Shown: positions 23,178-54,879 of the stretch, piece by piece
Layout of the letters: each line of letters starts with the position of its first letter
How positions within the stretch are numbered: the stretch's first letter is position 1
Source: a virus
Virus record (IMG/VR): IMGVR_UViG_3300025164_000635
Span: 1-64,000 of that record
DNA: 64,000 nucleotides
Reading direction: 5' to 3' (one strand)
The notes under the pieces: model-generated
Databases searched by the model: none
What the model was told of the DNA's origin: nothing
What the model saw: only the letters and a program-made list of their open reading frames with translations
Made by a program: the position numbers and the translations under genes

Positions 23178-23611
23178 GTAAGGGTGTCCTCCATGACCCG
23201 GATCGTGACTGTCCAGTATTCCTGGGCCGGGGTGAGTTGTCGAATAGGAGGCTCAATGACCATCAGACACCGGTAGCCATTCCCGGCATCTCGATTGACC
23301 GGGAAAGTGGGAGCGTCGTCGTGCAGGATGGGCATGTAGTAGCAGGTCTCGCCGGACAGGGCAATCAAGGCGTCCTTCTCGGCGGGCGTGGCAGTCACCT
23401 GCATGATGGCATCCCGGAACGTTACAATGTCTCCAGCGTTCCTCAAGCGATGGACATGCAATGCACCCGTCAGACTGCGTTCCTGGGAGACGGCTGCGGT
23501 CAAGCGTTCCTCGGGTCCGGGCTGGGCCACATGGTACATCGTTGAGTCATGTACCGGTTCATCGTCACTGTCCAGGAAGAGGTGTATGTGGTTGTGGATG
23601 ATACTAGCCAC
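23174..23611 (-). CDS. distal tail protein-like
   Basis: small gene directly after the tape measure gene; synteny only. Confidence 0.45.
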   Translation of the reverse strand: MASIIHNHIHLFLDSDDEPVHDSTMYHVAQPGPEERLTAAVSQERSLTGALHVHRLRNAGDIVTFRDAIMQVTATPAEKDALIALSGETCYYMPILHDDAPTFPVNRDAGNGYRCLMVIEPPIRQLTPAQEYWTVTIRVMEDTLT

Positions 23612-26600: not shown

Positions 26601-29600
26601 ACTACCCAGTCCTAAGCCACCAGCGGCCAGGGCGTAAGAGCCCAGTGAGGGCTGATCAGGATCTTCCATTCCAAGAACGCCCGAGGTGGCCTCCATGACG
26701 GGTCCCATGATGTCCCATCCAGCCCGACCGACCGACAGACCAAACCTTTGAGCCGCAACCTGCCCACGTCTGACGGTTCCGGCTGGCCCAAAGAAGCCAG
26801 CGGGTCCGCCCATCATAGCAACGTCCTGCTGTTGGCCACCTAGGAACTTGGCGTAATCGTCCATGCGCCCTGTAATCTGGCCGCCTGTCATACGCCAGGC
26901 ACGTTGCAGGTTCCAGGCGGCAAAGGCGATCTGACTGACATCGCCCTCACCAAAGATACGACCCATGGCGCTGCGCGCCGATCGTTGGAGAGCGGCCCTG
27001 GATAGCGGGTCTTGATCCTCGGCGCCCGCTTCCCGGAGTTGGACGATTTGTTGTCCAACCGCTCTTCTCTGCTCAGGCGTGAATCCCAATTCCTGGAAGA
27101 GGCCCCGCAGGCTGCGTGCGGCCTGTATGTCCCCCTGCGGGCCGGCCGCGGCCATCATCTCCTGTGCCCATTTCCGTTCAGCAGGAGCCTCCCTACCCTG
27201 CTGGATGCGCTTCAGGACATCCCCGAAATCCTCAGTGTGTCGGCGTGCCGTTTGAAGGGTCTCTCCGAAATCTTTGAGATACTTGTTCGTCTCCTTCTGT
27301 TGGATCGCGGCGGCCGCAATCTGCCGGAAGTTCTCGGCGGTCGACTCGGGCCCCACTGCCCCACCACCGAGTGTCTTCATTTCCGCGAATCGTTCTGCAA
27401 TGAACTTCTCGGTCACCCGGCCCGATTCGAGACGGCGGAACGTCTCGGCCGCGGCCGGAGTCATCTTGCCTTGGAACATCTGCTCAAGTACACCGCCTTC
27501 GTATCTTTCTCCTCCTTCAGTTGTGCCAGGCGGGAATGTTTCTGCCATGGCCTGGCCGAAAGTCTGTCCCTCTTTGATGCGCTGTCTGATGATCGACAAC
27601 TGCTCCTGAAAGCGCTCACCCCCGTACTTATAACCAAGATTCTTTGGACGTCCCTGGTACATAAGAACCCGACCGATGGCTCTCCCAACATCTCCCCCTT
27701 CCTCGGTGAGGAGCTTGACGAAATCACCCATCGACTGTGCGGCAATGTCGGCTGGAACCTGGCCCGGCTCTTTGTAGCCGGTCGTCGTCGAGGCTTCCCG
27801 TTCGGCTTTTGCTTGTGCTCGCCGACGAGCAACAAATTCAGCCGTCTCAATCCCGCTTCCTTCCTGGAAGATGCCGGCTGCGCGAGCCGATTCTCCAGGG
27901 GTAACCCCACCTGGTGTCTGGGGCGTGAGCCTCGGCTCGGGTGGTGTCTCAGGCTCAGGTGGTATTGCCATCACAGGCGGTCTTCTACTGGGTGGCTTGC
28001 GTCCACCGCCTCCCTGGGCACGAGGAGTTGGCGCTGGGGCAGTCGGATCGAAACGAGCTGCTAGTTCTTCAGGGCTCAACTCACCAGACACACGAGCCTT
28101 CATGGCCGCGTCCAGCCGATCCCGTTCCTCCTTGGCTATCTTCCGCCGCGCCTCTAGTAGCTCGCGTTCTTCGTCGTTTATGTTGGCTAGGTTCCCAGAA
28201 GAACCTGGATTGTCATACTCATCGAGGCTTGGAACTCCCACTCCCAGACGGATACGCTGCATCGCCTCCCAGGATTTCTGGCGGAACGCTTCCAGGCCAC
28301 GGGAGACTGTCTCAGTCACGTAAGTCGGAAGCAGGCCAGCGGAAGCCAGGTCGGACAATAGTCCACGAGCTCTCTCTTCCTCGTCCTCAGACTTTTCGCC
28401 TGTCACCCAAGGCGCGATATTGCCGCTTTCCAGACGTTGGGCGGCTAGCATCGGGGTTGCTAGGCGCTCGAAGAAGCCGAATCCACCGGTCGGCTGCCGT
28501 CCCTTAGCGGTCTGCTGGAAGTTGGTGTACTGTGGATTGTTGATGACATCTCGCATGATGCCACGCAGCCAGGGCGCTTTACTCTGAACACCCCGGTTGG
28601 TGATACGAGTGCCAATCACGGCTGTCAGAGGGCCTGCCTCTTTCCAGAAGCCCTGCTCACCGCCCATCCCCTGAATTAGGTCGTTGACCAGCTCTTCGGT
28701 CACGTCGTCACGGGTGACCCCCTCAAGCCTCTTGGCAATTCCTGTTCTCGTCTCAGGATTGGACGAAAGGAGGGTTGCCACGTCCCGATGCCAGGCTTTG
28801 TTGAGCTGTTCTTTAGTGGGGTCGGCAAAGCCACGGAACTCCTCGGCTTCCAGGACAGCCCGGATGATCTCCTTGGGGAGGGCCTGGAAGTCAACTTCTC
28901 GCTCGGGCGGCTTGCCCATTGTGGGATCGAGGGTTTCCCGAATCTTGCCGCGTACCCGACCTCGGCTGGTCGGGTCGTCTTCCCCGCCCGTCCTCAACGA
29001 ATAGGAGTTCATGATGCCCATCAGGGTTCTCATGCCGGACGAGACCGGCTCGTCCAGAGAAGCTTGATAGGCGAAATAGGAGGTACGCGCCAGAGTATCC
29101 TGTTCGCTCTGGGTGTTCATACCCATCGACTTCATCGCGATGGACAGGTTCCTTACAAACGGGTTGAACACATCGCCCCGCTGCTTCTGGGCAATCTGCT
29201 CGACGAGGTATGCCTGACGAGCGTCCTTGGTGGTGACCGAGGCGTTCATCTGCTCCAGGCTACCAAAGAACTCATCGGCCGTCTTGGGCGCCTTGCCGAC
29301 ATTCTGCATCCACTTGGCGAGTTCGGATGCCTTCATGCCGGTTCGTCTGACCAGATCATCCTCAACCGTCAAGTAGTTCTCCCAAGTGCGCTGACCGTGT
29401 ACCTGCTCACCGGTCACCAGCTCCAGGAACCGGAACTGCCGTTCCAGGAACTCTTCCTCTGTGGATCTCCTGGCGGCCTCGCCCGGCGTGGTGATGGACT
29501 TGCCAATCTTGAACACGGTGGCCAGGAAGAGAGCCACCTGGTCCCCATCTGCGTCCCCTTGGAAGCGGTTGGCGATCATCTGGGAGAAAGCCATCCCCTG

Positions 29601-32600
29601 GAAGTTCCGAGGAACGGGGATTCCCAAGCGGCCCGCCTCGGCGGTCGTCACGATCCGGAAGCCCGGCATGGACGTTACGCCTTGTAGCACGTCTGGTCGC
29701 CTCTGGCCCAAGGCGGTCATACCTGTCTCAACGTACCGATCCAGTGCCTCCTGGCTCATATCCCCTGAAGGCATACCGGTCAGTTCCCGCAACGCTTTTT
29801 CACCAACGATGACTTCCATAGGACGGGCGCCGGGAATGAAGGCATACGTCCCTTCTGTCCCCATGCGACCTGTCACATCTGAGGAGACCAACCCTTTCGC
29901 CACGGCCTTTGTGCCCATCAGTCGATTCATCCGATCACGTACCTGGCCGAAGGCACGCGCCTCTTCATTTGAGCCGGCCCGGGCTTTGACGAGCGTCTCG
30001 TAATAGTGGATGATCGCGTTATGTTCCTCTTGGGGGAACACGTCCTTCTCGGTGCCGGGAATGGGGTTGACCATTCCCGTGACTTCACTCGGAACGCTCA
30101 TGATCGACATCTGCGGCAATGGCGGAGTGATCACTCCGCCCCCAATGTCAACATACCGGCCTGGCGTAACCTGAGCCATCTTCTCAACAAACGAGAGCTC
30201 AGATGGTAGCTTGGCGATCTCTTCTCGGAGGTCTGCTAGGCTGACGACATTCATGTCCTCGCGAGTGGTTGGGTCCCGTGAGGCAGTAGCCGATTTCAGC
30301 AGACTCTCGTAATACTGGCGCTGGTGCCCTCCTTCCCGGAGTGCCCTTTCGGCCATACGAGGCGGCATGGCCTGCAACTCACCGAGCGTGGCCTGAGCCC
30401 GGCCCGTCCAGAGTTTCTCCATCTGGAACATGCGGCCGCCGACCGGCATCGCCCCCTGGAAGGTGACTTCCCGACGCTCGTTCCGATTCTGCCGCCAGTC
30501 ATCCCAGTCGATCTGGCCCAACGACTCCCGCCCATGAACACGGGCGTAGGTTTCGGCCTCCTCGTAGCTGACCGGGATACTCATGCGGACGTTCTGCTTC
30601 ACCATCTGCTGCTGAATGGCTCGTCCGATTTGGATGATGTAGGGGTCTAGTTTTTCGCCCCAGATCAGGCGTTTGCCGGTGATGGCCGCCTTGCTCTTCC
30701 GGGCCCACTCCCGTTCTTCGGGATCATAGTCCTCGACCAATCCTTCTTTGTAAGGGTCAAGACCCATCGACTGAAGCGTTTTAGTTAACAGCTCAAAGCC
30801 GCGTTTCTTGGTAGCGTAATAGTCACTCACCAGCGAGAAAAGTTCCTGACGAGGCGCTTGTGCAACTGGCATCAGCGCTTCAATGTTCAGGGCACCCCCC
30901 TCAACCCGTTTATTCAAGTCCTCGTAGGCCATGCCAACCGCTTTGTTTCCGAGCCAGGACTTGATCAACTCCTGCTCACCGCTAACCTTCCCCACGCCCT
31001 CCACCCGCAGCATGGACTCGCCACTCTCATAATGCTGGAAGGCGCGATTGACTGCAAACTGCATGAACTGCTTGGCCTTGAACGCTATCTCCCGGGCGTG
31101 CCCCAGCCGCCCCAGGGGGATTGAGCCACCGGTCTGCCGGCGATAGGCTTCCTCGTCCGGTGTAAAGTCCACACCCGAAGGAAGAGGGATGTCTTCCTGG
31201 TGGGGAAGGACAAAGCCGCCCTGGGCATCCATCTGCCGCATGGTTGCGGCGTCCATCAACATCATGCCTTCTGGCAAGTTCGGGGTGTACCCCACATTGA
31301 AGTGGATGCCTCGCTCAGAACGAGGAGCTCCTTCCATGCGGAACGGGGAGATGATGTTCCGACCCGTTTCAGGGGCCGCCGAGAGCATGTAGTCCCGGCG
31401 TGCAGCCATCGACACCCGTTTGCGGATCTTGGCAATCTGCTCCAGCAGAAGACCCGCTCTGATTCTTCCCGGCGTAGAAACATGGCCGGGAAGAGCCTTG
31501 TTGAGTTGCTCAATGTCATAGCCCAAGCTTGGATCACGTCCACGTGCCACCAGGCCGCCCGACTTCTCGTACCATCTCTGGACGGTCATCGGGTCGCCAG
31601 ACTCGCGTTCCTGACCTACTTGGTTGATCTTCACAGCCAACTGGTTCAGGGCTTCTCCGGCCGCGGTCGACGTCTCGCCAAAGACAGGCCCGACTCTGGG
31701 CATCCCTTCCATGAGCTTGCGGCGTCTCTCGTTCACGAGACGCATGGCCGCCCGGGGAGTCATCCCCTCTCCAATGGATTTACGCCACACGTGCATCAAC
31801 TCCGAGAAGATCTCGGGCTGGACGGGCCTCATGCCGGCTTCAAACTGGACGGGCGTGACAAGCACATCATCGATCGTCGGCTGGCCACGGAACTCACCCA
31901 ATCGCCCTTCCTGGACGACCGGCATCTCCCCCGTTTCCTTCTCGGAGGCAATGTCGGGCAGAATGAAGCGGCCGCCCTGGGTGAGAATGGACTTGGCTCC
32001 CAGAATCTCTTTGACGCGGCCGTAGGCCACACGTGCAAAGCCCAGAGGGGATGTTTCGGCAACTGGCTCGGTTGGCTTTTCGGCAGCCCTCTGCGGGAGA
32101 CGGGTCGGATCAAAGCTACTGACCCCGATCTCTTGCATATGAGATTGAAGCTCTTTGATAGCCTCTTCTTCCGAGAAGTCTCCCTTCCGGGCGCCCTTCG
32201 CCAGCATGCCGGCGATCTCGTACAGCGCCCGCATATCTCGCCGCCAAGCAAACGGGATGACAGGCGAGCCGGGTTCGCCAGTGCCTCTCTCGAACTCACT
32301 CAGTCGATGGGGGTGAAATCCAGTCCACTTCTCAATGAGACCTGCCTCATCAGAGGCGGCACGGATGGGGGTATAGAGAGTGCCGCCGGGCTGAAACTCT
32401 TTGGCCTCGGCCACAGGCCGCTCAGAATAGGTGATGTTCTTAACCGGTACTAGCTCCGAGGAAAGATGAGGGATTTCCTCGACGTTCTGACCCGTCATAC
32501 GCCTCATGATCTGGCGGGCGTACTCAACCCGGTTCTCTTCGTTCAGGCCGTGCCAAGCGACGATGATGTCTGTCGCAATGGTCTTGGGAGCAAAGAACAG

Positions 32601-33065
32601 GCTGGCCTTTGCTCCTGGGGCAAGGCTTTCTCGGAGTGCGTGGGCATACATTTGGGGCTGGAGAAAATAGCCCTCTTCCTTCGGGGTGCCGGTGTATTTC
32701 TCAGGCTGGAAGTGGACCTTCTCGGTGGGCGTGGAGACCTTAACGTCTGAGACGTTGATGATCTTATCGCCACCGTTCCAGAGCACGACGTCAGGCCGTC
32801 CCTTATAGGGAATATCGTAAGCTCTGCCGGTCAGCCCCTTGATCTGAGTGGAGATACGCGCAACGCCCGTCCCGGAAAGAGTCTCAGGATGGGCTTTTAC
32901 GAAGGGGATCAGTGTGTCTGAGACAAACTGATCGAACTCTTCACCGTGCTTGATGTCTTCAGATGACCAGAAACCCTGCTTGGGATCGCTGGAGAGGTAG
33001 GGCCAGCCTTTAGCGGAATAAGCGGCCGCGCTCGGTCTGACTTCGGGACGATCAGGAGGAGGCAT
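23604..33065 (-). CDS. giant tape-measure protein fused to a putative two-barrel RNA polymerase and an N-terminal PD-(D/E)xK domain
   Basis: tape-measure position after tail tube and chaperones; C-terminal Gly/Ala hydrophobic and Q/E/R helical repeats; QRRP and RFQGDADGDQVALF (aa ~1121, ~1171); KSWLGNKA..EDL (aa ~700); GRPD..DVK..QPQMY (aa ~92-140). Confidence 0.8.
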   Translation of the reverse strand: MPPPDRPEVRPSAAAYSAKGWPYLSSDPKQGFWSSEDIKHGEEFDQFVSDTLIPFVKAHPETLSGTGVARISTQIKGLTGRAYDIPYKGRPDVVLWNGGDKIINVSDVKVSTPTEKVHFQPEKYTGTPKEEGYFLQPQMYAHALRESLAPGAKASLFFAPKTIATDIIVAWHGLNEENRVEYARQIMRRMTGQNVEEIPHLSSELVPVKNITYSERPVAEAKEFQPGGTLYTPIRAASDEAGLIEKWTGFHPHRLSEFERGTGEPGSPVIPFAWRRDMRALYEIAGMLAKGARKGDFSEEEAIKELQSHMQEIGVSSFDPTRLPQRAAEKPTEPVAETSPLGFARVAYGRVKEILGAKSILTQGGRFILPDIASEKETGEMPVVQEGRLGEFRGQPTIDDVLVTPVQFEAGMRPVQPEIFSELMHVWRKSIGEGMTPRAAMRLVNERRRKLMEGMPRVGPVFGETSTAAGEALNQLAVKINQVGQERESGDPMTVQRWYEKSGGLVARGRDPSLGYDIEQLNKALPGHVSTPGRIRAGLLLEQIAKIRKRVSMAARRDYMLSAAPETGRNIISPFRMEGAPRSERGIHFNVGYTPNLPEGMMLMDAATMRQMDAQGGFVLPHQEDIPLPSGVDFTPDEEAYRRQTGGSIPLGRLGHAREIAFKAKQFMQFAVNRAFQHYESGESMLRVEGVGKVSGEQELIKSWLGNKAVGMAYEDLNKRVEGGALNIEALMPVAQAPRQELFSLVSDYYATKKRGFELLTKTLQSMGLDPYKEGLVEDYDPEEREWARKSKAAITGKRLIWGEKLDPYIIQIGRAIQQQMVKQNVRMSIPVSYEEAETYARVHGRESLGQIDWDDWRQNRNERREVTFQGAMPVGGRMFQMEKLWTGRAQATLGELQAMPPRMAERALREGGHQRQYYESLLKSATASRDPTTREDMNVVSLADLREEIAKLPSELSFVEKMAQVTPGRYVDIGGGVITPPLPQMSIMSVPSEVTGMVNPIPGTEKDVFPQEEHNAIIHYYETLVKARAGSNEEARAFGQVRDRMNRLMGTKAVAKGLVSSDVTGRMGTEGTYAFIPGARPMEVIVGEKALRELTGMPSGDMSQEALDRYVETGMTALGQRRPDVLQGVTSMPGFRIVTTAEAGRLGIPVPRNFQGMAFSQMIANRFQGDADGDQVALFLATVFKIGKSITTPGEAARRSTEEEFLERQFRFLELVTGEQVHGQRTWENYLTVEDDLVRRTGMKASELAKWMQNVGKAPKTADEFFGSLEQMNASVTTKDARQAYLVEQIAQKQRGDVFNPFVRNLSIAMKSMGMNTQSEQDTLARTSYFAYQASLDEPVSSGMRTLMGIMNSYSLRTGGEDDPTSRGRVRGKIRETLDPTMGKPPEREVDFQALPKEIIRAVLEAEEFRGFADPTKEQLNKAWHRDVATLLSSNPETRTGIAKRLEGVTRDDVTEELVNDLIQGMGGEQGFWKEAGPLTAVIGTRITNRGVQSKAPWLRGIMRDVINNPQYTNFQQTAKGRQPTGGFGFFERLATPMLAAQRLESGNIAPWVTGEKSEDEEERARGLLSDLASAGLLPTYVTETVSRGLEAFRQKSWEAMQRIRLGVGVPSLDEYDNPGSSGNLANINDEERELLEARRKIAKEERDRLDAAMKARVSGELSPEELAARFDPTAPAPTPRAQGGGGRKPPSRRPPVMAIPPEPETPPEPRLTPQTPGGVTPGESARAAGIFQEGSGIETAEFVARRRAQAKAEREASTTTGYKEPGQVPADIAAQSMGDFVKLLTEEGGDVGRAIGRVLMYQGRPKNLGYKYGGERFQEQLSIIRQRIKEGQTFGQAMAETFPPGTTEGGERYEGGVLEQMFQGKMTPAAAETFRRLESGRVTEKFIAERFAEMKTLGGGAVGPESTAENFRQIAAAAIQQKETNKYLKDFGETLQTARRHTEDFGDVLKRIQQGREAPAERKWAQEMMAAAGPQGDIQAARSLRGLFQELGFTPEQRRAVGQQIVQLREAGAEDQDPLSRAALQRSARSAMGRIFGEGDVSQIAFAAWNLQRAWRMTGGQITGRMDDYAKFLGGQQQDVAMMGGPAGFFGPAGTVRRGQVAAQRFGLSVGRAGWDIMGPVMEATSGVLGMEDPDQPSLGSYALAAGGLGLGSLFALAGGGRLASMAGLGVLGRPMTGLAENIAGGVVGRAGGLARGVRGLGETAALRGMYALEGRALGRLALRGAGVGGGLVGGALGIGLLGGELLGEAGANIGEAQGGETGASIGRVAGTGAGILGTRALLGARLAGGGAITGPLTGGIALGGAIYDETIGRQQGITAGQIVNQLLGGIDTGARLLVASLSQSADVWKDAQRTGAMWAERAEGSSREGSKATQEAAEQMKKFADYSRFGKELEARMEAIRQPMEAGTGVKVGALLAQATGMDLQTMMRPESIKAMQQLMLLPPELQQQRMGLGVGMARAAGMEWGGAGFAGTIQQAISLTPQQQLRAQFNLGQISPIGGLAQQYGVQLPALTPDLITNLSPEQRTMLTRVGSLDPVAISREATRLQGMQPQLQQAQFAQNLRAEATRMQDMTLAQQNITQEAREQRDRDRSLMQQGASFLFPETAIRAAAVGGQRGIFGAGQAIAAQMGQVQQVIQRAIPTTQPDFRSLIQVEPETLQRAGTTDVSMFAPSDWAMGQRLYGRTTAPIDTGMNLVQAQSQARMADRAYQQFQYQQQLAQLGRQQVYQLGGQIGGYDFTGGFNIEQAQLGEGARAQRRQFQLQAGTMNYGWLGRGADAFQGMGGEYADLERMGAAGLGYRQFYENLEQQRRVSGIQRGRTEEDVQRQYQRQMTGLGWQEQDLTVNFERSMTRFTQSLQDLTTNFQRGQTQFGWQRENLAFQGSQQALSFGWQMEDIDTAMRYATGRERRQLSRQRERGVVGYGMQVEQLGREGERLEERQQWAQEDFNRERNRLEERRGWAEEDFGKEKDRIDTRREWAEEDLARALERLLEQGKLDEEQFGLRAKQFEEDQKMAKLRHDESVKHFSITNGLQVKAFEDRKKQFEIESAAQAVSLIKTMLHTAEVIRLQDQIGVLTSAMSYRFDRFSEDIKDPNGKLANSLNAIVLDISGALGSAHQPYFKGHDTVFRAFERLTEAVVANVNRAVQELTSG

Positions 33066-44435: not shown

Positions 44436-44764
44436 TCGAGTACCCCCAGAAGTACAATCTTGAGTGTGGCTCCCAGGGGAGCCACCACGGAAACGCCGGT
44501 CAAGGTAGCGCCTCCTAGGTAAGCGACCGTGCAGTCATACCCTGAGACAGCCCCGTTCAGCCGGAGCTCAATCACTTCGTCACTCGACAGGAAAAGAGAG
44601 GTGACGCTTGACAGAGGGGCCGGGAAGAGATCGACTGCGCTGGCCGAGGCTGGCAGCTCCATCTCGTATTGCATCATCTCAGCATCCCCGGTCAGGAGGT
44701 TCTCAAACAGGGGTGAAATGCGATCACCGTTTGTGTCCAGCACCGATAGGAAGACCTGCTTCAT
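44432..44764 (-). CDS. hypothetical virion protein
   Basis: coupled to the portal gene. Confidence 0.5.
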   Translation of the reverse strand: MKQVFLSVLDTNGDRISPLFENLLTGDAEMMQYEMELPASASAVDLFPAPLSSVTSLFLSSDEVIELRLNGAVSGYDCTVAYLGGATLTGVSVVAPLGATLKIVLLGVLE

Positions 44765-46377
44765 TTGGGTACTCCTGCAGGAACAGGTACGGGCGCGTTC
44801 TGCCCATTCCCGGACGGCTGGCCACCCCCGAAGGGAGCCGGCTTCGATTCCGCGATCGCCGTAGCCCGTTTGATCTCAAGCTCGTTCTCAAATTCCATGT
44901 CGGCCCGGATGCGGTCCTGCTCTGCTTCGGGATCGTGGACGCCAATCTCGGTCAGGTAGCTCAGGAGACTGATACCGCCCTTCGTGAGGCGGTTATTGAG
45001 CATGTCGGCTCGTTCGCTTACTTCCAGGGGGATTTGAGGATTCCAGATCAATAGTTGATTGAGGCGAAGATGGTCTTCCGAGAGGTTGACTGGCAAAGTA
45101 ACGCCGGCCTGGGTCAATGCATTTCCATAGCCCATCAGGCCGGCCAAGATGATGCGATTTAAGTGCCGCATGGCGGTCGAGAAGTCGATGCGCTCAGCTT
45201 GTGTGTGCGCCATCGTCGGCCACATCCGGTAAGCCGTCACCGGGCCCGTGATCCGGCCGCCCGACACATCATCGTCACCCAGAGCGACGGCTGCAATGTC
45301 GGCCTGCCGGCGGATCTCGTTCCAAAGCTCAGCATCGTAATTGGCAAGACTGGCTGGCACTTCGGGATAGCGCAGGAAGTCGGCCTTGGGATCGCCTGAG
45401 TTGGGAGCTGCTCTCTTCACGCCCAAATTGAGAGCAGTCGATACTTCCCGGCCATGCTCATCGAGAACGGGCTGCATCTTCAGACCCTTCTCAACATTGG
45501 CAACAGTCATGATCGGATGGGTGACTTCCCGGACGGCATCCCCTTTGTCAGCCGATCTGAAATTCTTCTCTCGCGTCAATCCTACCAGGTCGGGAATGTG
45601 ACTATTGCCCCAGAATCCATCGTCTCGAATGTGGGGGATATAGACGATGGGCACTCTCTTGAATGGGTGTGGCCCTTCCAGGATACCGTATCCTTCAACT
45701 TGGGCCACTTTGCCGTTCACCCGAATGACATAGCTGTCCGGCGTCCAGTGCTCCATGTAGAGGGCATCTTCATTCTCATCAACCTTGACCCCGTAGCGTG
45801 CGGCATCCACAGATGAGATCAGATAGCCAATGTAGCACTCCCGCAGGTTCCACCATTGGCCCTTGTCGTAAACGGGTAGCAGCGTTCCTGGTGTGACCGG
45901 GAAGATACGCAGGCGGGTCGCTAACTCAGTATCTTGGGGTTGCCACAGGACTTGCAGGCCATACCCGCCGAACACCTGGGTCATCAAGCCCACCCTCTGA
46001 ATGAGCGCAGTCGCTTCTGAGTCATCCCAAGTGGAGCGTAAGAGGTCCTGAATAGAGGTCGCCTCAGCTCGTGAGGTGCTACTATCACCGCCCGGTTTCA
46101 CGACGATCTGGACAGGGTTTGAGAGGACATTGTGAGGCTGAATCCCGATCAGTACGTCACGGTGGACGCGACACACTTTCCCGATCGGGTTCAGGGCAAG
46201 GGGATAGAGCTTGGGGCGATCTCCGGTCGCCGGATCGGAGATACTAGACTCAGGATCACGAATGGAGTCCCCGCGAAACCACGACAGATAATCCGCGTAG
46301 GCGGTTCGCCGGGCAGCCCACTCGTCTGAATTGTAGAGTTCTTCGTCTGGATTCTTGACCAGGCCAAAGCGTGCCAA
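44761..46377 (-). CDS. portal protein
   Basis: 538 aa after terminase; HPF.RVPIVYIP....FWG.S.I.DL SPP1-type pattern; SG..ITG. Confidence 0.85.
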   Translation of the reverse strand: MARFGLVKNPDEELYNSDEWAARRTAYADYLSWFRGDSIRDPESSISDPATGDRPKLYPLALNPIGKVCRVHRDVLIGIQPHNVLSNPVQIVVKPGGDSSTSRAEATSIQDLLRSTWDDSEATALIQRVGLMTQVFGGYGLQVLWQPQDTELATRLRIFPVTPGTLLPVYDKGQWWNLRECYIGYLISSVDAARYGVKVDENEDALYMEHWTPDSYVIRVNGKVAQVEGYGILEGPHPFKRVPIVYIPHIRDDGFWGNSHIPDLVGLTREKNFRSADKGDAVREVTHPIMTVANVEKGLKMQPVLDEHGREVSTALNLGVKRAAPNSGDPKADFLRYPEVPASLANYDAELWNEIRRQADIAAVALGDDDVSGGRITGPVTAYRMWPTMAHTQAERIDFSTAMRHLNRIILAGLMGYGNALTQAGVTLPVNLSEDHLRLNQLLIWNPQIPLEVSERADMLNNRLTKGGISLLSYLTEIGVHDPEAEQDRIRADMEFENELEIKRATAIAESKPAPFGGGQPSGNGQNAPVPVPAGVPK

Positions 46378-46675: not shown

Positions 46676-46903
46676 TTACAAGAATCTCTGTCGTTTGTCA
46701 ATATGGCGTCTCGTGACCACGCGCCTGAACCTTCCGCTTGCTCTAACCGACCGCAGACCGCCTCGGCTTCTCGGCTCGACCTGAATCTGAGGATTTGCAG
46801 TGTCTTCGATGAGCTGGGCCTGCCAGCGTATAACAATCTGCAACATTCGGCGTAACATTGACTGAACCTTGTCCAGTGACCAAAGTCCCATACGTTTGAT
46901 CAT
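46676..46903 (-). CDS. hypothetical protein
   Basis: ATGA-coupled to the terminase stop. Confidence 0.45.
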   Translation of the reverse strand: MIKRMGLWSLDKVQSMLRRMLQIVIRWQAQLIEDTANPQIQVEPRSRGGLRSVRASGRFRRVVTRRHIDKRQRFL

Positions 46904-48759
46904 CGCCGATCCCTCCGGGTCTGTGTTCGTGCTCCTCGATAGGAGCTTCTCGGCAGCCTCACCATCTCTTCGTCATCACTGGCCGGCATGGGTTTCAGAT
47001 CTTCGTTGATCCTGAACTTATCGACCACCCTACTCCAAAGAGTCCCTTCGTACCTGACCGCCAAGCAGTATACAAACAAAGAGGCAATCACGTCATCGGA
47101 CAACTTATCGTGCCCCGGCCCCTTTTCCCGGTAAACGCCGCCTTGATACCAAAGAGCGGTCAGCTTCGGCCAGGCAAAATGACTATCTTGCGCCAAGAGC
47201 GTAAATAGAGACCGAGCCCAGGCTTTGTTGTTACCGGCAAACGTGACCGGCACAGTCTGATAGCTAGCGAAAACACCACTGTCCTCGAACCCGGTCAGTC
47301 CCAGATTGGTCGCGTCGTAATAGCCCATGGCTGCGTAATCATCCATGCACTGCTTGAACGCGCTCAGCCACGGATCGTAAGTCCCATCCCCATCCAGCAT
47401 CCCAAAATAGACTAACGGGATTGGTTTCACCATGAAGGTCGTCAAATCAAGCGCCAATACGGTCGGCACATTCTGGTCACTCAGCTGGGCCGGATACGAC
47501 TTTCCCGGATCGCCCACCACAATGTAGCTATGTCGCGCAATTGGCGGCACTCGATACCGGATGACGCCCATTTCCCCTCGACTCTCAGACGGGATCCGCT
47601 CGGCCAGTAAGTCCTTATCCATCTCTTCATCGTGGCACCGATTGAAAAGCACTTCTGGCAATAGCCGATTCAGGCTCGAGGAGTTCGTATCCCCACCCAA
47701 CCAACGCCTCTGCTCGGCCTCAGATAGCAAGGCCCCATGAAATGCCTTCTGCCGATCGGTGATGTAGACGTTCGCGTCTCGGTGAATCCCCTCCACGTAG
47801 CGTGCCTTCACCAAAGGATCGTTCTTCTCGGCCAGCGTCCTGATGCGTCCTTTGAGCACTTCCAACTCAGGATTCAACATCCCGTCTTCGGGTGGGTTCG
47901 TCAGCATGGTCAGTTTCGACCACATATCCTCACCATTCGCCCGTTGTCCGCGCGAACGGGTCATGAGTGTTCCCAAAGCGGCCACAATACCCATGAGGTA
48001 CTGCACCTCGTCCACATTCAGCCAATCCACATTCTTCCCGGTAATGTTCTGCGCTGTGCCATCTCGCCCAATCGTTTGACACACAAACCGGCTCTCATAT
48101 TGCGGCCCAAAGGGACTCCGAATCACCACGGTCGGGTGTGGCTTTGAGACAAACAACTCGCCCCCACGAGTCATCTCTACAAATTTCGTGAAGGGCGTAT
48201 CGGTGCACCACTTTGTCAACTCTTCCACCATCAATACGGCCTGATTCTCGGTGGGCGCCACGTTCAGGAACCGGAAGCCCGGATACAACGCACAGCACCC
48301 CAGGCCCGCCACGGCTACCGCACTCGTCTTGCTCGTCCCGGTCCCCGTGATGGCCAGCACGACCGCCACACTCGGATCGATCAACCCATTCTGTATCACC
48401 CACGGCAAAAAGAGATACCCATGCGGATACAAGAAGTCTGGCTCAGCCAGCTCTGTCCAGCGCGTCTCAATACGCATGAGGCCAAACCCCTCGACCTCCA
48501 GTTTCATCTCCTGCTCCGGCCGGCCCGCCTGCACCCACATCTCGTGCAACTGACCGTACTCAAAAAGAGACCGGTAATGGCCAGTCTCACCCCCTTCCGC
48601 CCGCCAGCGAGTCCCCCCGCCTGGCAAGCGCATGTAGTAGTTCGTCAGCACATTCAGGTCACCGTCGCGTGCCTCCTTCAATACCCGCATGTCTGACGGC
48701 TCCGCCAGCGACTCAAATCGCTTCATCCACCTCGATAACGCCCTCTCGTCCGCCCTCAT
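46900..48759 (-). CDS. terL: terminase large subunit
   Basis: Walker A GTGTSKT, Walker B WLNVDE, motif III LTNP, nuclease VVGDPG...YDAT...SDD. Confidence 0.85.
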   Translation of the reverse strand: MRADERALSRWMKRFESLAEPSDMRVLKEARDGDLNVLTNYYMRLPGGGTRWRAEGGETGHYRSLFEYGQLHEMWVQAGRPEQEMKLEVEGFGLMRIETRWTELAEPDFLYPHGYLFLPWVIQNGLIDPSVAVVLAITGTGTSKTSAVAVAGLGCCALYPGFRFLNVAPTENQAVLMVEELTKWCTDTPFTKFVEMTRGGELFVSKPHPTVVIRSPFGPQYESRFVCQTIGRDGTAQNITGKNVDWLNVDEVQYLMGIVAALGTLMTRSRGQRANGEDMWSKLTMLTNPPEDGMLNPELEVLKGRIRTLAEKNDPLVKARYVEGIHRDANVYITDRQKAFHGALLSEAEQRRWLGGDTNSSSLNRLLPEVLFNRCHDEEMDKDLLAERIPSESRGEMGVIRYRVPPIARHSYIVVGDPGKSYPAQLSDQNVPTVLALDLTTFMVKPIPLVYFGMLDGDGTYDPWLSAFKQCMDDYAAMGYYDATNLGLTGFEDSGVFASYQTVPVTFAGNNKAWARSLFTLLAQDSHFAWPKLTALWYQGGVYREKGPGHDKLSDDVIASLFVYCLAVRYEGTLWSRVVDKFRINEDLKPMPASDDEEMVRLPRSSYRGARTQTRRDRR

Positions 48760-48944
48760 CCATCCCCCTTCCCTACAGGTGGAGTCTTGCCCCACCATTC
48801 CGTGCGTCTGGAGACCGCCTCATCAAAGGCGTCCAGACAGCTAATTAGAAACTGCGCCAGGATGAAGTCCGGCGTGTCCGACCGATTCTCCATGCTGTTC
48901 TCGTTCAGCAACACCGTCAGCTTGTCCCGAAATCCGTCACTCAT
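48756..48944 (-). CDS. small phage protein
   Basis: LLN.NS.EN.SDTPDFILA.FL..CL.AF pattern; coupled to neighbours. Confidence 0.65.
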   Translation of the reverse strand: MSDGFRDKLTVLLNENSMENRSDTPDFILAQFLISCLDAFDEAVSRRTEWWGKTPPVGKGDG

Positions 48945-49811: not shown

Positions 49812-49919
49812 ATGTCACAGGTTGGTTCGTTCATTCTGTTGGTCGTGGCCGCCGTGTTCATTCTGGCTGGTGGTGGCGCAGGCGTCATCATCGGGCAACT
49901 GTTCACGATGGGCTTCTAA
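49812..49919 (+). CDS. 35-aa membrane peptide, first gene of the rightward early cluster (not in ORF track)
   Basis: AGGAAAGGAGA RBS; MSQVGSFILLVVAAVFILAGGGAGVIIGQLFTMGF. Confidence 0.6.
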   Translation: MSQVGSFILLVVAAVFILAGGGAGVIIGQLFTMGF

Positions 49920-50019
49920 CTGAATAGCAGAGGCAGAGGGGCAACCGAAAGGTTGTGTCCCTCGCCCTCTGGGATTCAGCCGAAAGGCTATACCAAGAAT
50001 CCTGGAAAGGAGAACAGCC

Positions 50020-50265
50020 ATGTTGCAGATCAACCATGTCGAGATCAGGACAATCGAGGCCGCGAAACTGATGGACTTCGTGGGCAAGGCGCAACCGTCT
50101 GCTTGGGGTATCGGTCGGTATGCCCTGCAGGCAGGGCAGCCCACCATCCAGGTTGAGCAGCGGGTGTGCCATGCCGCCGCTCTTGAACTGCGCCAGTTGG
50201 CCGCAGAGAAGGACATCGCCAACCCGGCGCTGTTCGCTATTGCGGCCTATCTCGGCAATCTGTAA
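50020..50265 (+). CDS. early hypothetical protein
   Basis: AAGGAGA RBS. Confidence 0.65.
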   Translation: MLQINHVEIRTIEAAKLMDFVGKAQPSAWGIGRYALQAGQPTIQVEQRVCHAAALELRQLAAEKDIANPALFAIAAYLGNL

Positions 50266-50369
50266 AACAACTGAATATCGCAGAGAGGGGCTAGGCCATA
50301 GGCTTAGCTCTAATGCGGCATACCGGTCTCAAGCCCGGTAAACCCATGTCGCATAAAGGAGAAAGAGTC

Positions 50370-50561
50370 ATGCGTACAGTTATCCAGGACCGGGTAGCTT
50401 CAGAAGCTACTCGGAGAGCATACGAACGTATGATGGAGAGCAACCCAAGACCCAGCTACCAGCCTCAGTCTGAGGCCGAAGCCTGGAGACAGGCGTGGAT
50501 CTCAGGCAAGGTCAGCCTAGGGGATGTCCCGGCTCGCTATCGCTCCCTCGTTGCTCGCTAA
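50370..50561 (+). CDS. early hypothetical protein
   Basis: AAGGAGA RBS before MRTVIQ. Confidence 0.6.
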   Translation: MRTVIQDRVASEATRRAYERMMESNPRPSYQPQSEAEAWRQAWISGKVSLGDVPARYRSLVAR

Positions 50562-50676
50562 CAATCGAATATCTGCCTTCTTCCAGGAAGGCAGAGCAGG
50601 CTCATTCTCTCGGAGGAGGATGGGCCTGCTCTGCTTTCTGGGACTAGAGCCCAGAGCAGAGAAAAGGAGAATCACC

Positions 50677-50871
50677 ATGACGTACCCGAAAGGCTACACC
50701 AACGACTACGCTACCATCTGGGAGCAACGCATGAGCAAGGCCATCGGCCTGCACCTACACTGGCTGACTGAGGCATGCTACCAGGCCGCTCTTTACAGCG
50801 ACCGCCTCACCATCCAGGCTCAGGTCAAGCTGGGCAAGCTCTACATGGCTGCCAGCAAGGGCGGCAAGTAG
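50677..50871 (+). CDS. early hypothetical protein
   Basis: AAGGAGA RBS before MTYPKG. Confidence 0.65.
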   Translation: MTYPKGYTNDYATIWEQRMSKAIGLHLHWLTEACYQAALYSDRLTIQAQVKLGKLYMAASKGGK

Positions 50872-50982
50872 TCGTCAATCTACTTCTGTCTTCCCCTCCG
50901 GGAAGGCAGAGGCTTGGGTATCACGGTATCCAAGCCTCTGCCTTTCGGGACTAGAGCCCGAAGCAGAGAAAAGGAGAAACCC

Positions 50983-51252
50983 ATGTCTCACAAGATCATC
51001 TTCGTGCTGGTGCTGGTCGGGCTGATGCTGGCCTTCACGGCCTGTGATGCCTCGAAAGAGGCAGGCTGGACGACCTCCTGTATCCGGGAGTACAAGGCCG
51101 CCAACGATGGGGCTGATCCGGATGCGGACACACTCAAGGCGTGCGTTGAGGCCAAGAGAGATGCTGCTGAGTCTCTCAACAAGACACTCAATCAGGGCAA
51201 GCAGCAGGCCGAAGCCCTGGTTGCTACACCCGTCCCTGACCCCAATAAGTAG
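50983..51252 (+). CDS. lipoprotein (possible superinfection exclusion)
   Basis: MSHKIIFVLVLVGLMLAFTAC lipobox; RBS. Confidence 0.7.
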   Translation: MSHKIIFVLVLVGLMLAFTACDASKEAGWTTSCIREYKAANDGADPDADTLKACVEAKRDAAESLNKTLNQGKQQAEALVATPVPDPNK

Positions 51253-51384
51253 CAAGCTATAGACAACCAAATATCGCTTCACCCCTGCTCCCTCATGGGA
51301 GCAGACCAGAGCCACTCTCCTGCGAGGGCGGCTCTGGTCTGCTTCTGGGACTAGAGCCCAGGCAAACAGAAAGGAGTAGTAGCC

Positions 51385-51879
51385 ATGTTACACAATCCGT
51401 TGTTCTGGTTCTGTGTTGCAGCTCTGCTTGTTGCTATCCATGAGCTGATCGTCCGCAATCGCAACCCCTTCTACGAGCTGGACTTGCGGGAGTATTACGA
51501 GCCGAGCTCCCAGGAAGGGGATGAGTGCCCCATCTGCGGTGTCATGGGCGGGCACGATGCCGAGATATGCACGGGTGATGAGTATGCCGGCGTGTGCCGT
51601 GAGGACTTCTATGTCCAATTCGGCAACACCCCAGAAGTTCGGGAGCTGTATCACATCTGGGTCTCTGAGGCTAATGTGGAGTTCCGCTGGATGGTCATGG
51701 ATATGTGCGGCATGTACGGTGCCTCCGAGACCTTGGGCCGCCTCCGGGAAGCCATCAACGAGGAGCGGCCTCTCGACTTGCCATCCAGCAAAGAGATGCA
51801 CCGCCGCATCCTCCGGGCTTGCCCCGATCCCGACCTCGCCCGCGGTATGGGTGAGGAGACCCTCTACAGAGTGCGATAG
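51385..51879 (+). CDS. membrane-anchored protein with a CPIC...H...C motif
   Basis: N-terminal TM helix; AAGGAG RBS. Confidence 0.6.
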   Translation: MLHNPLFWFCVAALLVAIHELIVRNRNPFYELDLREYYEPSSQEGDECPICGVMGGHDAEICTGDEYAGVCREDFYVQFGNTPEVRELYHIWVSEANVEFRWMVMDMCGMYGASETLGRLREAINEERPLDLPSSKEMHRRILRACPDPDLARGMGEETLYRVR

Positions 51880-51887
51880 GAGGAACA

Positions 51888-52307
51888 GTGGATAAGTATG
51901 TACGGGTCCGTCTGACGAGCGCTAGCCTCTTGGCGCAGTCAGATCCCTTCCCAGTGTTGTTGTGGTACGACGCCAGGAAGCGGGCCGTCCACCTGAAGGT
52001 CATCTCCAGCGCGGGTGGGCGGTATGACGTGCACCTTCGGTTCCAGGTGCACGAGGGCAAGGCTTACCTCATGGATCGGATGTGCTTCTGTGAGGACTTC
52101 GAGTCCTCGATGAAGCACTTCGACATGCTCCAGGAGCTCGGGATGCCGGTTGAGGGGAGTGCCTTGCCTCTCTATCGGGGCCTGCCCATCTGCAAGCACA
52201 TCCTGCTCGGCGGTCTGAAGGTGATCGCCGAGAACTGGGTGGCCCTCTTCCTGGATGGGCAGCCGCAGGCTAAAGCCTTCCAGGAAGATGAAGTCCTGCC
52301 GTTCTAG
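51888..52307 (+). CDS. SWIM zinc-finger protein
   Basis: SS..G.Y.V...CFCEDF...ICKHI. Confidence 0.75.
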   Translation: MDKYVRVRLTSASLLAQSDPFPVLLWYDARKRAVHLKVISSAGGRYDVHLRFQVHEGKAYLMDRMCFCEDFESSMKHFDMLQELGMPVEGSALPLYRGLPICKHILLGGLKVIAENWVALFLDGQPQAKAFQEDEVLPF

Positions 52308-52476: not shown

Positions 52477-54879
52477 ATGTCGTTCACGTCATTTCGCTCT
52501 ACCCGTAAGGTGGTTGTGGTGGACCGCTTCGGGCGACCCACCGGAGAGGAAAGGATTCTCTCTAACAGCCCGATCGACGCCCTGTTCCCTGACGAGAAGA
52601 TCGTCATGGTGAACTGGAAGTACGAGGGCGCGAAGGCGCCCACCGCTGAAGAGTTGCGCCGGCCGATCCGCCACGGCGGCAACGAGTACCGTGGTGACTG
52701 GGCCTGGGGCAGCAGCGTCAAGCGCGGATACACTGTGGGCCTGACCCGTGACCTGCTGGTGGACACGGGATTGCTGAACTGCTGTGAGGACGCCCACCGA
52801 TTCGGTCGGGCGTTCCTTGCCAACGGCCTGTATGGGGCCGGGAAGGGTGAGCTGCACATCAAGTTCGTGCCCGAAGGGACTCAGACCCTGGCCGGCCCGG
52901 TGGCGGACGGCTTCGGGTATGTGAGACGCTCGGTGGCCGAGAAGATGAATGCCGGACACGACAAGATCAAGTTCGGCACCGCGCGCGACTCGTCGCACTG
53001 GTGGCAGCGCATTCCCTGGACATCCGAGATCCAGGAAGAGCTGGAGCCGCTTCTGCGTGACAACCTGGTGGAGGCTGGTGACCCCGGGTTGTGGATGTTG
53101 AGGCAGTTAGGCGACCGCGATCAGGGTCGCCGCCACCTGGTCGAAGCCGAGCCGTTGATGGCTGAGCACCCGTATGTGGCGAACATGCTCATGAGGGTGT
53201 CCTCAGACATCCTGGCCCGGGCGGCCACGACGGTCCCCCTGAATCACGCGGTGAAGGTTACTGTGCCCGCGAACGTCCCCAACATCGCTGTGGACGGGAA
53301 AACACTGAGCACGCGCTACCCGATCGATGCCAAGAACTCCATCCGGGCGAACAACAACACGCTCAACACCGTGGAAGCCGAGATGGAGCGGATTGCCGAG
53401 ATGGAGCGGATTGCCCAGATGGAGGTCATTCAGTATGGCATGACCTCCATGGGTGACCATCCCTTCTCGGCTAAAGGCTGCGCCGGGATCGTTGACGATG
53501 ATCTCCTCGATGCCGACTTCGTGTTGTGCACGAAGGACATCAAGATGGGTGACAAGAAGTTGGTGGACATCAAGGCGGAGATCGTGGTCTCGGTGACCCA
53601 GTGGTTTGCCCAGGGCGAGGCGGTCGGTGTGAATACGAAGTTCTGGGCCGACCAGGGCGGTGATTGCGACGGCGATCTGGCGTTGATCGCCGATTGCAGT
53701 GAGTTGCCCCGCCTGTGGGAGGCGGTTAGCGGGTTTGGGCTCCAGCCCACGCCCAAGCTCATCAAGACTCACACGAAGCTGGAGGACGAGGACATCCGGG
53801 GTGAGTTGGCTGAGAAATCCATGCTGAATGTGGTCGGCATGGCAGTCAACCTCATGGCTGCGACGTTTGTCACGGCCAACCGGGAAGAGATGGCCCACCG
53901 CCTGGGCTATGCGAGTGAGGCTGCCCTGGATAACGCCCTGAATTACTGGGTGAAAGCAGGCACGGATCTCTTCAAGGTGTCTGTCGACACCAAGCAGCTC
54001 ATGCAAGATCTCTCTCGGTTCCAGAGCAAGCTGGTCAATGTGCTCGGTACGCTGCCGCCGTGGGTGAGCTGGCCCAACGACTGGGCCTTCACGCACGGCG
54101 TCCCGTCCTTCTGGAACGAGGACGAGATGGGTCACCTGAAGAGCGACGATCCTGTTCGGAAGAATGCCGTTCCTACCAATTCCTGGTACGACGGGACCAT
54201 CGTCCAGATCATGAGGCTGACCCTGCTCGCCCTCAGCGCGATGCTGAGCCATACCCTGGCTGTGCGGCCGCTGCATGACTTCCAGAGATGGGCCCTGGTT
54301 GTGCCGGACAGTGTTCTGGGGCCCGCGATCGGTCTCCAGAAGATGTTCGTAGCCGAGTCCCAGCGCGTCAACTGGGAGTGGCCCCAGGATGTCGTCCGCT
54401 TCAGCCAGTGGTGGGCCGAGAAGGTCGCCACCTGGAAGAACGAGATGGGCCTGGATGACACCCTAGCCTGCGCTGCTATCTGGCGCGCGGCCCATGACAT
54501 GCGGAGCAAATACGCCGGGGCGTCGTCTGTGTTCATGGCCTTCCCGGAAGAAGTACTGGATATTCTCCGGGATAAGCCCGGCCTCTCCAAGTTGGTGTCT
54601 GGTGTCATCCTCGGCCTGCCCGAAGTGACCGAGGAGACGGTCATCCAGGGCACCGTTCGGGAGTTCAAACGCAAGGACTCACAGTCCGGCCGGACCGTCA
54701 TCCGCAAGTGCTTGGTGGACGGTAACTCGGGCCTACCCCATATGCCCGACATCAACTACCCGGGCGCGATTGCCGTCTTTGCTTCGGATCACCCGTCGCC
54801 CGAGAATGGGCTGAAGGTGACCGTCAAGGTCACCCGGCGCACCAAGAAGTCCTGGTTCGCTGATTGCATCTGCCAGTAG
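52477..54879 (+). CDS. single-subunit two-barrel RNA polymerase (YonO / cellular-RdRP-like)
   Basis: ADGFGYV, TRYP, QY...SAKGC...DFVL..KDIK, catalytic GGDCDGD (53662-53676), G...N...AGTDLFK. Confidence 0.8.
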   Translation: MSFTSFRSTRKVVVVDRFGRPTGEERILSNSPIDALFPDEKIVMVNWKYEGAKAPTAEELRRPIRHGGNEYRGDWAWGSSVKRGYTVGLTRDLLVDTGLLNCCEDAHRFGRAFLANGLYGAGKGELHIKFVPEGTQTLAGPVADGFGYVRRSVAEKMNAGHDKIKFGTARDSSHWWQRIPWTSEIQEELEPLLRDNLVEAGDPGLWMLRQLGDRDQGRRHLVEAEPLMAEHPYVANMLMRVSSDILARAATTVPLNHAVKVTVPANVPNIAVDGKTLSTRYPIDAKNSIRANNNTLNTVEAEMERIAEMERIAQMEVIQYGMTSMGDHPFSAKGCAGIVDDDLLDADFVLCTKDIKMGDKKLVDIKAEIVVSVTQWFAQGEAVGVNTKFWADQGGDCDGDLALIADCSELPRLWEAVSGFGLQPTPKLIKTHTKLEDEDIRGELAEKSMLNVVGMAVNLMAATFVTANREEMAHRLGYASEAALDNALNYWVKAGTDLFKVSVDTKQLMQDLSRFQSKLVNVLGTLPPWVSWPNDWAFTHGVPSFWNEDEMGHLKSDDPVRKNAVPTNSWYDGTIVQIMRLTLLALSAMLSHTLAVRPLHDFQRWALVVPDSVLGPAIGLQKMFVAESQRVNWEWPQDVVRFSQWWAEKVATWKNEMGLDDTLACAAIWRAAHDMRSKYAGASSVFMAFPEEVLDILRDKPGLSKLVSGVILGLPEVTEETVIQGTVREFKRKDSQSGRTVIRKCLVDGNSGLPHMPDINYPGAIAVFASDHPSPENGLKVTVKVTRRTKKSWFADCICQ

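Follow-up and report, generated by a model that had tools for sequence, protein, structure and literature searches.

How are messages begun and ended in a block of small phage genes that shows neither promoters nor terminators of the usual kind, and what part is played by a hairpin element that recurs in the gaps between these genes? The question is raised by an uncultured soil phage of about 95 kb (IMG/VR virus record IMGVR_UViG_3300025164_000635; 95,304 bp), of which bases 1-64,000, hereafter the window, were analyzed, and in which a three-hairpin element is found three times on the + strand, every copy in a gap between small + strand open reading frames (ORFs). A scan of 48.7-52.6 kb finds no sigma-70 promoters and no intrinsic terminators, so the messages of this region need some other form of delimitation. 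The best reading, which we hold tentatively and at slightly less than even confidence, is that each repeat is an RNA leader serving message punctuation and stability. Its conserved part, an extended form of the third hairpin (H3ext), is an undescribed, widespread and well-supported RNA motif of phage leaders.

The three copies, A (50572-50660), B (50884-50968) and C (51285-51367), each consist of a first hairpin (H1), a long second hairpin (H2) and a third hairpin (H3), and all of them are followed by a Shine–Dalgarno (SD) sequence, AAGGAG (50664, 50971 and 51371), and then by ATG (50677, 50983 and 51385), an arrangement that had been described in an earlier note on this DNA and that is borne out in every copy. 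The 13-mer GGGACTAGAGCCC is present exactly at 50640, 50947 and 51347, on the + strand only, against a chance expectation of about 0.002 (2 × 64,000/4^13); no further site is found in the 95,304-bp record with one mismatch allowed, and a literature search on the 13-mer and its loop returned nothing relevant. Each element region folds 4.4-4.7 standard deviations better than dinucleotide shuffles (z -4.4 to -4.7). The stems had been called covarying, and the H1 and H2 stems are indeed unrelated in sequence between copies and nevertheless paired in all of them. In the three-hairpin fold (state X), the copies together form 100 bp, including nine G-U pairs, and all nine stand on the + strand, where they pair as RNA; on the template strand they would be C-A mismatches. 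A search of elements A-C against Rfam 15 at E <= 10 returns only chance matches to miRNA-like hairpins.

The earlier note held H1 and H2 to be mutually exclusive through a shared segment, and this overlap is real and goes further than was claimed. In its long form, H2 reaches 25, 21 and 20 bp in copies A, B and C, respectively, by invading both H1, from which it takes the 3′ arm, and H3, from which it takes the 5′ arm. Because CUGC/GCAG clamps are repeated fourfold, two near-equal folds result, and the long-H2 fold and the three-hairpin fold differ by just 0.8-1.5 kcal/mol in all three copies, which are therefore bistable. The long form provides an intercistronic helix of about 20 bp or longer, as is found at RNase III sites. 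H2 is followed merely by UUUCU, CUUUC or UUCU, and the terminator scan finds no G+C-rich hairpin with a U-tract at the elements. An SD-masking switch was considered and rejected, as the accessibility of the SD sequence is alike in both folds (A 0.80/0.75; B 0.34/0.40; C 0.37/0.37). The suggestion that these are RNA processing or switch elements is plausible though unproven, with the bistable copies and the ribozymes that occupy the same slot, described below, in its favor.

For the third hairpin, the loop, the stems and the order of SD and ATG had been given correctly; its length had not, as an outer stem and a bulge extend it. H3ext arises by pairing of the sequence in front of H3, which is the 3′ base of H2, with the sequence that follows H3. 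From the base upward it has an outer stem (3-6 bp), a bulge on the 5′ side or an internal loop, an inner stem closed by G/C pairs and the 7-nt loop AC[AU][AUC]GAG; the helix totals about 12 bp, and the 3′ end of the hairpin lies 1-5 nt before the SD sequence. All three copies have the features of the family, namely a GG/CC-closed loop, inner and outer stems of 3-6 bp each, a 5′ bulge or asymmetric internal loop, and an SD sequence 1-5 nt downstream. The lengthening of the helix by the flanks is supported by an energy test that is independent of the alignments (Stouffer z -6.6), in which copy C taken alone is weak (z -0.6). Counting outer-stem length against shuffles gave no information, as the composition of the flanks is itself complementary; the energy test and covariance-model alignments were used instead.

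Pattern scans and two covariance models, one of which (R2) served as the scoring model, identify at least 36 instances of H3ext, all immediately 5′ of an SD sequence. A covariance-model search of viral sequences, as proposed in the earlier note, finds this hairpin in other phages, and no Rfam family covers the H3ext leaders of this phage or of the other carriers. H3ext is conserved in a related phage group; H1 and H2 were found in this genome alone. The related group (contigs of 80-150 kb; terminase large subunit (TerL) 34% identical; a 314-aa neighbor gene in common) carries one to three copies, always on the early-gene strand beside the terminase junction. In its low-GC members (L005, L006, L007, L015 and L139), almost every early gap consists of a terminator hairpin, a constant T7-A-T5 run and (A)ACGG; H3ext starts directly after the terminator T-runs and begins at the CGG of ACGG, and the T7-A-T5/(A)ACGG unit may be a combined terminator and phage promoter. 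In six other carriers (L111, L122, L142, L151, L156 and L202), H3ext lies 5-10 nt after strong TTGACA-17-TATAAT promoters with A/T-rich tracts upstream. The 122-kb phage G409 has 15 copies within 7 kb (84342-91504, in the segment G409:C1:82500-93500, L223); its cassette begins with a variable hairpin, continues with a short conserved one whose loop is UAAC and closes with H3ext, and the ORF behind each cassette (105-155 aa) comes from one of a few paralogous families. Throughout the hairpin family, H3ext is placed at the 5′ end of the message or close to it, with a promoter or a terminator-like hairpin directly before it, and the genes downstream are unrelated between carriers, so the hairpin is not the leader of one particular gene.

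H3ext also follows host-type promoters in three Saccharimonadia/Patescibacteria genomes. In two of the three, the hairpin is identical over 30 nt and its flanks have diverged; the score of the third instance (L100), by itself, is compatible with a chance match. The two homologous loci (L085, 5480-5800, +, and its counterpart in L086) have a clpC-like gene on one side, with dus on the other side in L085, and consist of a consensus promoter, the conserved hairpin, an SD sequence, a non-conserved short ORF and a terminator, so that the unit looks like a small RNA or leader-peptide unit. The 314-aa marker protein of the related phages, used to test a host link to Saccharimonadia, was absent from the 401 genomes searched, which says nothing either way.

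The paired structure of H3ext is supported by covariation. Over 28 distinct sequences (a smaller set held 12), 92.9% of cells are paired and seven of the nine pairs vary in both partners, with a covariation score of 0.633, compared with 0.141 for shuffles, none of 500 of which reach it, and at most 0.155 for slid controls. A compensatory change from G-C to A-U is found in the inner stem within G409. Phages with 40-57% G+C and Saccharimonadia share an almost unchanging loop and closing pairs amid variable surroundings. In a relaxed scan, both variable loop positions are A or U in 18 of the 19 intergenic instances with an SD sequence and an ORF, whereas matches in coding regions carry mixed bases there. 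By eye, no consistent complementary partner for a loop-to-flank pseudoknot is seen across carriers. Relatives that were found through the smaller RNA polymerase (RNAP) of this phage (L062-L082; 32-40% identity) lack the H3 motif. One of them (L073, 1950-3150, +) has a gap cassette of its own, a hairpin with CCGGAGG/CCUCCGG arms followed by AUUUUG and, about 20 nt on, an SD sequence.

The main idea of the earlier note was that the elements are single-stranded DNA hairpin promoters for an injected virion RNAP. It has the circumstances on its side, in that three copies lie in the presumed first-transcribed region by the genome-end junction, the cluster has no host promoter consensus, and a conserved loop on variable stems is how hairpin promoters are expected to look. 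The idea is nevertheless highly improbable. The wobble pairs are G-U on the mRNA-sense strand in nine of nine cases. In other phages and on Saccharimonadia chromosomes, H3ext stands downstream of canonical, host-type promoters, so it is transcribed there by the host RNAP and is not itself the promoter. The virion-RNAP promoters of phage N4 are template-strand DNA hairpins with a stem of 5-7 bp and a 3-nt loop with a central purine, and are used by a T7-like enzyme. H3ext has a 7-nt loop on a bulged helix of about 12 bp, and the nine sense-strand G-U pairs argue, indirectly, against a template-strand hairpin.

The polymerases encoded by this phage point in the same direction. The large virion candidate, a 3153-aa ORF, has no recognizable T7-like RNAP domain and carries a DxDGD motif of the two-barrel type; it may be a virion two-barrel RNAP like P23-45 gp96 or crAss gp66. 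The 800-aa protein encoded at the end of the early cluster has no Pfam or PHROG match, and GGDxDGD is invariant in its 10 homologues. Its fold model is poor (pLDDT 59.8), with QDE-1 (E 2e-5), RDR2 and the gp64 and gp62 RNAPs of P23-45-like phages as the best PDB matches, and a sequence search of PDB with an RNAP profile found nothing; on these modeled matches it is probably a non-virion two-barrel RNAP. Thermus phage P23-45 has a giant virion RNAP and a smaller non-virion RNAP, both two-barrel (PMC10770324), and this phage resembles it in its putative set of two RNAPs. In P23-45, the one studied phage with such a pair, the RNAP promoters are linear motifs, AT-rich or GC-rich, and those used by virion RNAPs of this type are AT-rich (PMC10770324), which again tells against hairpin promoters.

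The slot in which the elements lie is shared with a self-cleaving ribozyme. Five consecutive gaps hold a repeated module between small early ORFs that ends in an SD sequence and a start codon, and three of the five open with the 13-nt head motif ACAAYYRAATATC, directly after stop codons; the copy at 50561, behind ORF 50370-50561, heads cassette A, the copy at 51263 heads cassette C, and the third opens the gap between ORFs 50020-50265 and 50370-50561. This gap contains a twister-P5 ribozyme (RF02684; 50 bits against a gathering score of 37.6, E 1.2e-08, matched over the full length of the model), with an ATG at 50313 inside it and a cleavage site predicted by homology at U50311/A50312. The twister cassette and the three-hairpin cassettes thus have the head motif and the SD tail in common. 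A degenerate copy of the element reported at 50325-50336 is in fact the P4 loop of this intact ribozyme. A second one, near 49971, belongs to another long hairpin, in the first gap of the cluster (49920-50019), which does not match the H3 models, has GCAGAGG twice and matches no Rfam family at E <= 10.

Ribozymes fill such gaps in other phages as well. In L075, whose RNAP is 32% identical, consecutive early gaps are filled by a type III hammerhead match (3288-3342, +; E 2.3e-7; 43.1 bits, just below the gathering score of 48.5) and by a twister-like match with a P3 insertion (3534-3613, +; 32.7 bits, below the gathering score of 37.6). In L043, which belongs to a more distant, L005-type group and was found via the 314-aa marker protein, a twister-P5 match above the gathering score (3062-3115, -; 55.3 bits) lies about 35 nt before an SD sequence. 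The same contig carries a DUF3800-XI RNA (12163-12210, +; 63.8 bits) close to a tRNA. Since the leaders occupy the slot of the twister ribozyme, they are most likely markers of the points at which early messages end, start or are cut, and hammerheads flanking single genes in prophage operons were likewise read as message processing in 2011 (PMC3088659).

The three-hairpin element could then itself be a self-cleaving RNA, either of a new class or derived from twister. Slot, head and tail are as in the twister cassette, ribozymes cluster in these phages, and MAFFT aligns H3 with the twister P4, GCAGAG being common to both. It was through such association with ribozymes that Weinberg and colleagues reportedly found twister-sister, pistol and hatchet in 2015. 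Elements A-C, however, do not match RF02684 even at E <= 10 with permissive filters, nor any other ribozyme family at that threshold, and they lack the twister architecture of a P1/P2 internal loop, a U-A site and two pseudoknots with the P4 loop; the H2 helix is continuous, and the H3 loop is unlike the twister P4 loop. The sole conserved unpaired bases are the H3 loop and the 2-nt bulge, and H3ext is, in the majority of other carriers, a solitary hairpin of 30 nt whose internal loops vary. With no conserved unpaired core and with H3ext standing alone elsewhere, a new ribozyme is very unlikely. Integron attC sites, the Cas6f repeat hairpin, lambda boxB, T-loop or anticodon mimicry and the k-turn were also considered and set aside because their defining features are lacking; H1 has CUGCC/GGCAG in common with the Cas6f repeat hairpin.

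The sense-strand wobbles, the position of H3ext beside the SD sequence and the host promoters upstream of it elsewhere all argue for an RNA that acts in the transcript. In the reading we favor, the whole cassette (stop codon, head motif, H1, H2, H3ext, SD and ORF) would be transcribed as a sense-strand leader, and the early transcript would be cut in the long H2 (20-25 bp) by a host RNase of the RNase III type, specific for double strands. After the cut, the H1 arm would re-pair and cap the upstream message at its 3′ end. The base of H2 on its 3′ side, now free, would pair behind H3 to form H3ext, the protected 5′ end of the downstream message beside its ribosome site. H3ext would be the conserved working part, with its invariant loop binding a factor, and the neighboring twister ribozyme would carry out an equivalent punctuation autocatalytically. 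A cut in the long H2 is proposed because nothing resembling a promoter separates H3ext from the hairpins upstream of it; such a cut-and-refold model would account for the retention of both competing pairings in all three copies, and the invariant loop calls for a specific partner. Host RNase III sites in SP82 early mRNA were described by Panganiban and Whiteley in 1983, as cited in PMC4838370.

Several points weigh against leader cleavage and stabilization of this kind. No RNA run is listed among the public runs that contain DNA of this phage. H1 and H2 are found in this genome alone, so their covariation rests on three paralogous copies, and most other carriers have H3ext with no long helix like H2, so cutting by RNase III is not general to the family. 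The family alignments used for covariation were fitted to the structure of the model, a procedure that favors pairing. A simple stabilizing role does not explain the invariant loop, and, if the head motif is a phage-RNAP promoter, the element could be a primary 5′ untranslated region that needs no cutting.

The last point leads to the main rival, in which the repeats are cassettes of terminator and promoter for the two-barrel RNAPs of the phage. The head motif or the H2/H3 junction would be the promoter, H1 and H2 would stop or attenuate transcription from upstream, and H3ext would be the hairpin of a primary 5′ untranslated region, with no cutting involved. The head motif is a candidate phage-RNAP promoter or cassette junction: it is A/T-richer, follows stop codons and is found exactly only in these gaps. 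Two polymerase candidates are encoded by the phage, the 800-aa probable two-barrel RNAP with which the cluster ends and the 3153-aa ORF with GDADGD, and the cluster has no host promoter consensus. Precedents are offered by the early gaps of the low-GC relatives, where a hairpin, T7-A-T5 and ACGG precede an H3ext that starts from CGG, by P23-45, whose pre-early genes are flanked by repeated AT-rich promoters and a conserved 26-nt terminator motif (PMC10770324), and by PeSL cassettes, which share the layout of stop, promoter, stem-loop and SD (PMC2839356). However, H1 and H2 lack a U-tract and no terminator-like site was found; a promoter in the head motif would place H1 and H2 downstream of it, where they would stop the cassette's own transcript; and a twister ribozyme in the slot would be without purpose except as a means of trimming the 5′ end. 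Most of the data are compatible with this account, which is a distinct possibility, short of a likely one.

One further proposal, somewhat unlikely at present, is that the loop AC[AU][AUC]GAG is read by a specific endoribonuclease or RNA-binding factor and is the cis signal of an unrecognized, shared punctuation system. The hosts of these phages, possibly including Saccharimonadia, on whose chromosomes the hairpin is found, would have this factor in common, and it would set the 5′ ends of cassette mRNAs; the hairpin would be interchangeable with self-cleaving ribozymes, and arrays such as the 15 copies of G409 would be its natural habitat.

Alternatively, H3ext may be an operator, to which a host or phage protein binds through the loop and regulates translation or read-through by RNAP, with H1 and H2 tuning the formation of H3ext. 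Models for such operators are provided by T4 gp43, RegA and the MS2 coat protein in translation, and by nut sites of the lambda boxB/N type in read-through. A near-invariant loop with its closing pairs, a hairpin that abuts the SD sequence and a bistable fold that could gate H3ext formation would all suit an operator, and the terminators in the early gaps of the low-GC relatives make read-through or re-initiation necessary. No protein common to all carriers was found, however, and the downstream genes are unrelated; in relatives the hairpin lies mid-operon or near the end, not at the start, unlike nut sites; and the SD sequence is equally accessible in both folds. An operator is therefore unlikely.

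The cassettes lie in the presumed early region of the genome, next to the genome-end junction. The TerL gene (46900-48798) and the portal gene (44761-46377) both run leftward, and a block of small rightward ORFs starts at about 49.8 kb; the coordinates of the cassettes, of the surrounding ORFs and of the two RNAP candidates are collected in the table. Metagenomes of soil, sediment and groundwater contain DNA nearly identical to the window, and the contigs of four runs match it so closely that they provide no microdiversity usable for covariation. No close relatives were found by a single-protein TerL search of viral contigs or by blastn against GenBank phages.

Table. Positions of the cassettes and related features in the window (long and short forms of H2 are alternatives).
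Feature	Position	Strand	Basis or remark
Head motif ACAAYYRAATATC (13 nt)	50267-50279, 50561-50573, 51263-51275	+	sole exact matches in window
Twister cassette: head motif (50267-50279) and twister-P5 ribozyme (50279-50338)	50267-50338	+	RF02684
Copy A H1, 10 bp including one G-U	50572-50595	+	constrained fold
Copy A H2, short form	50596-50629	+	long form 50586-50639, 25 bp
Copy A H3ext: outer stem, UU bulge, inner stem 6 bp, loop ACUAGAG	50630-50660	+	R2 52.6 bits; flanks z -3.1
SD AAGGAG and ATG of 64-aa ORF 50677-50871	50664-50679	+	
Copy B H1	50884-50911	+	constrained fold
Copy B H2, short form	50912-50935	+	long form 50901-50946, 21 bp
Copy B H3ext: outer stem 6 bp, CU bulge, inner stem 6 bp, loop ACUAGAG	50936-50968	+	R2 48.7 bits; flanks z -3.2
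SD and ATG of 89-aa ORF 50983-51252, putative lipoprotein	50971-50985	+	
Copy C H1, 8 bp	51285-51304	+	constrained fold
Copy C H2, short form	51305-51338	+	long form 51299-51344, 15+5 bp, single-nucleotide bulges
Copy C H3ext, one C-A mismatch in outer stem	51338-51367	+	R2 46.4 bits
SD and ATG of 164-aa ORF 51385-51879	51371-51387	+	
Long imperfect hairpin in the first gap of the cluster, no H3 motif	49920-50019	+	fold z -4.3
Small rightward ORFs	49812-49919, 50020-50265, 50370-50561, 50677-50871, 50983-51252, 51385-51879, 51888-52307	+	
800-aa gene closing the early cluster, probable two-barrel (QDE-1/YonO/gp64-like) RNAP	52477-54879	+	GGDxDGD, fold matches
3153-aa ORF, GDADGD at residue 1171	23604-33065	-	no Pfam or PHROG match

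The purpose of phage self-cleaving ribozymes between early genes is a question that has been open since 2011. Here, a non-catalytic RNA has the head, tail and slot of a twister ribozyme, and the presence of ribozyme and hairpin module in one transcript block therefore amounts to a natural experiment on message ends and stability. H3ext provides a compact search model of about 30 nt that is absent from Rfam and has strong covariation, and the early-gene cassettes that it marks come from several unrelated groups of phages and from bacteria of the candidate phyla radiation. If its partner is a host factor, the hairpin could give a clue to the hosts of the uncultured phages that carry it, and small portable leader hairpins that set mRNA 5′ ends would be useful parts in expression design.

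Among known systems, the element belongs with the modular intercistronic leader cassettes of phage early regions. Stem-loops that stabilize messages at the 5′ end are known from the ompA leader, the T7 gene 10 leader, B. subtilis aprE and SP82, and are not known to need a particular loop sequence. As in these, a stable hairpin stands near the 5′ end with a strong SD sequence close behind; in H3ext, by contrast, the loop and its closing pairs are nearly invariant. With the hairpin promoters of N4, the elements share three copies in the first-expressed region, a giant virion protein and a conserved loop on variable stems, but differ in their bulged helix of about 12 bp, 7-nt loop, sense-strand wobbles and two-barrel enzyme candidate. 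RAGATH motifs were reportedly found by Weinberg and colleagues, in 2015, beside ribozymes; in Rfam 15, neither the ribozyme nor the RAGATH families include a match to the elements described here, which have no plausible catalytic core. Like the ribozyme-punctuated phage and prophage operons (Perreault et al. 2011, PMC3088659), the gaps considered here hold ribozymes in the slot of the elements, twister in this phage and hammerhead and twister in relatives, and the neighboring genes are inconstant.

The host RNase III sites of T7 (R0.3-R1.3) and of SP82 (Panganiban and Whiteley 1983, cited in PMC4838370) are likewise repeated hairpins in early gaps, shortly before the ribosome sites. This phage has helices of about two turns (20-25 bp) to offer for a predicted cleavage; T7 sites have a characteristic internal loop, whereas the helices here are near-perfect and have two competing hairpins alongside. 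P23-45 (Chaban et al. 2024, PMC10770324), set against this phage by description, appears to have the same set-up of a giant DxDGD ORF and a smaller non-virion two-barrel RNAP, the latter ending a block of small genes with repeated intergenic motifs; the motifs of P23-45 are linear DNA, mapped by start and termination sequencing. PeSL of T4-type phages (Arbiol et al. 2010, PMC2839356) is, like the element described here, a reusable module between small non-essential early ORFs, made up of a stop codon, an A/T-rich signal, a stem-loop, an SD sequence and a start codon, with variable genes downstream. PeSL is defined by a sigma-70 consensus promoter (PMC2839356), of which this cluster has none and which is present in the six carriers with H3ext behind TTGACA-17-TATAAT. 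Furthermore, the loops of PeSL are not conserved (PMC2839356), whereas the loop of H3ext is invariant and recurs in unrelated phages.

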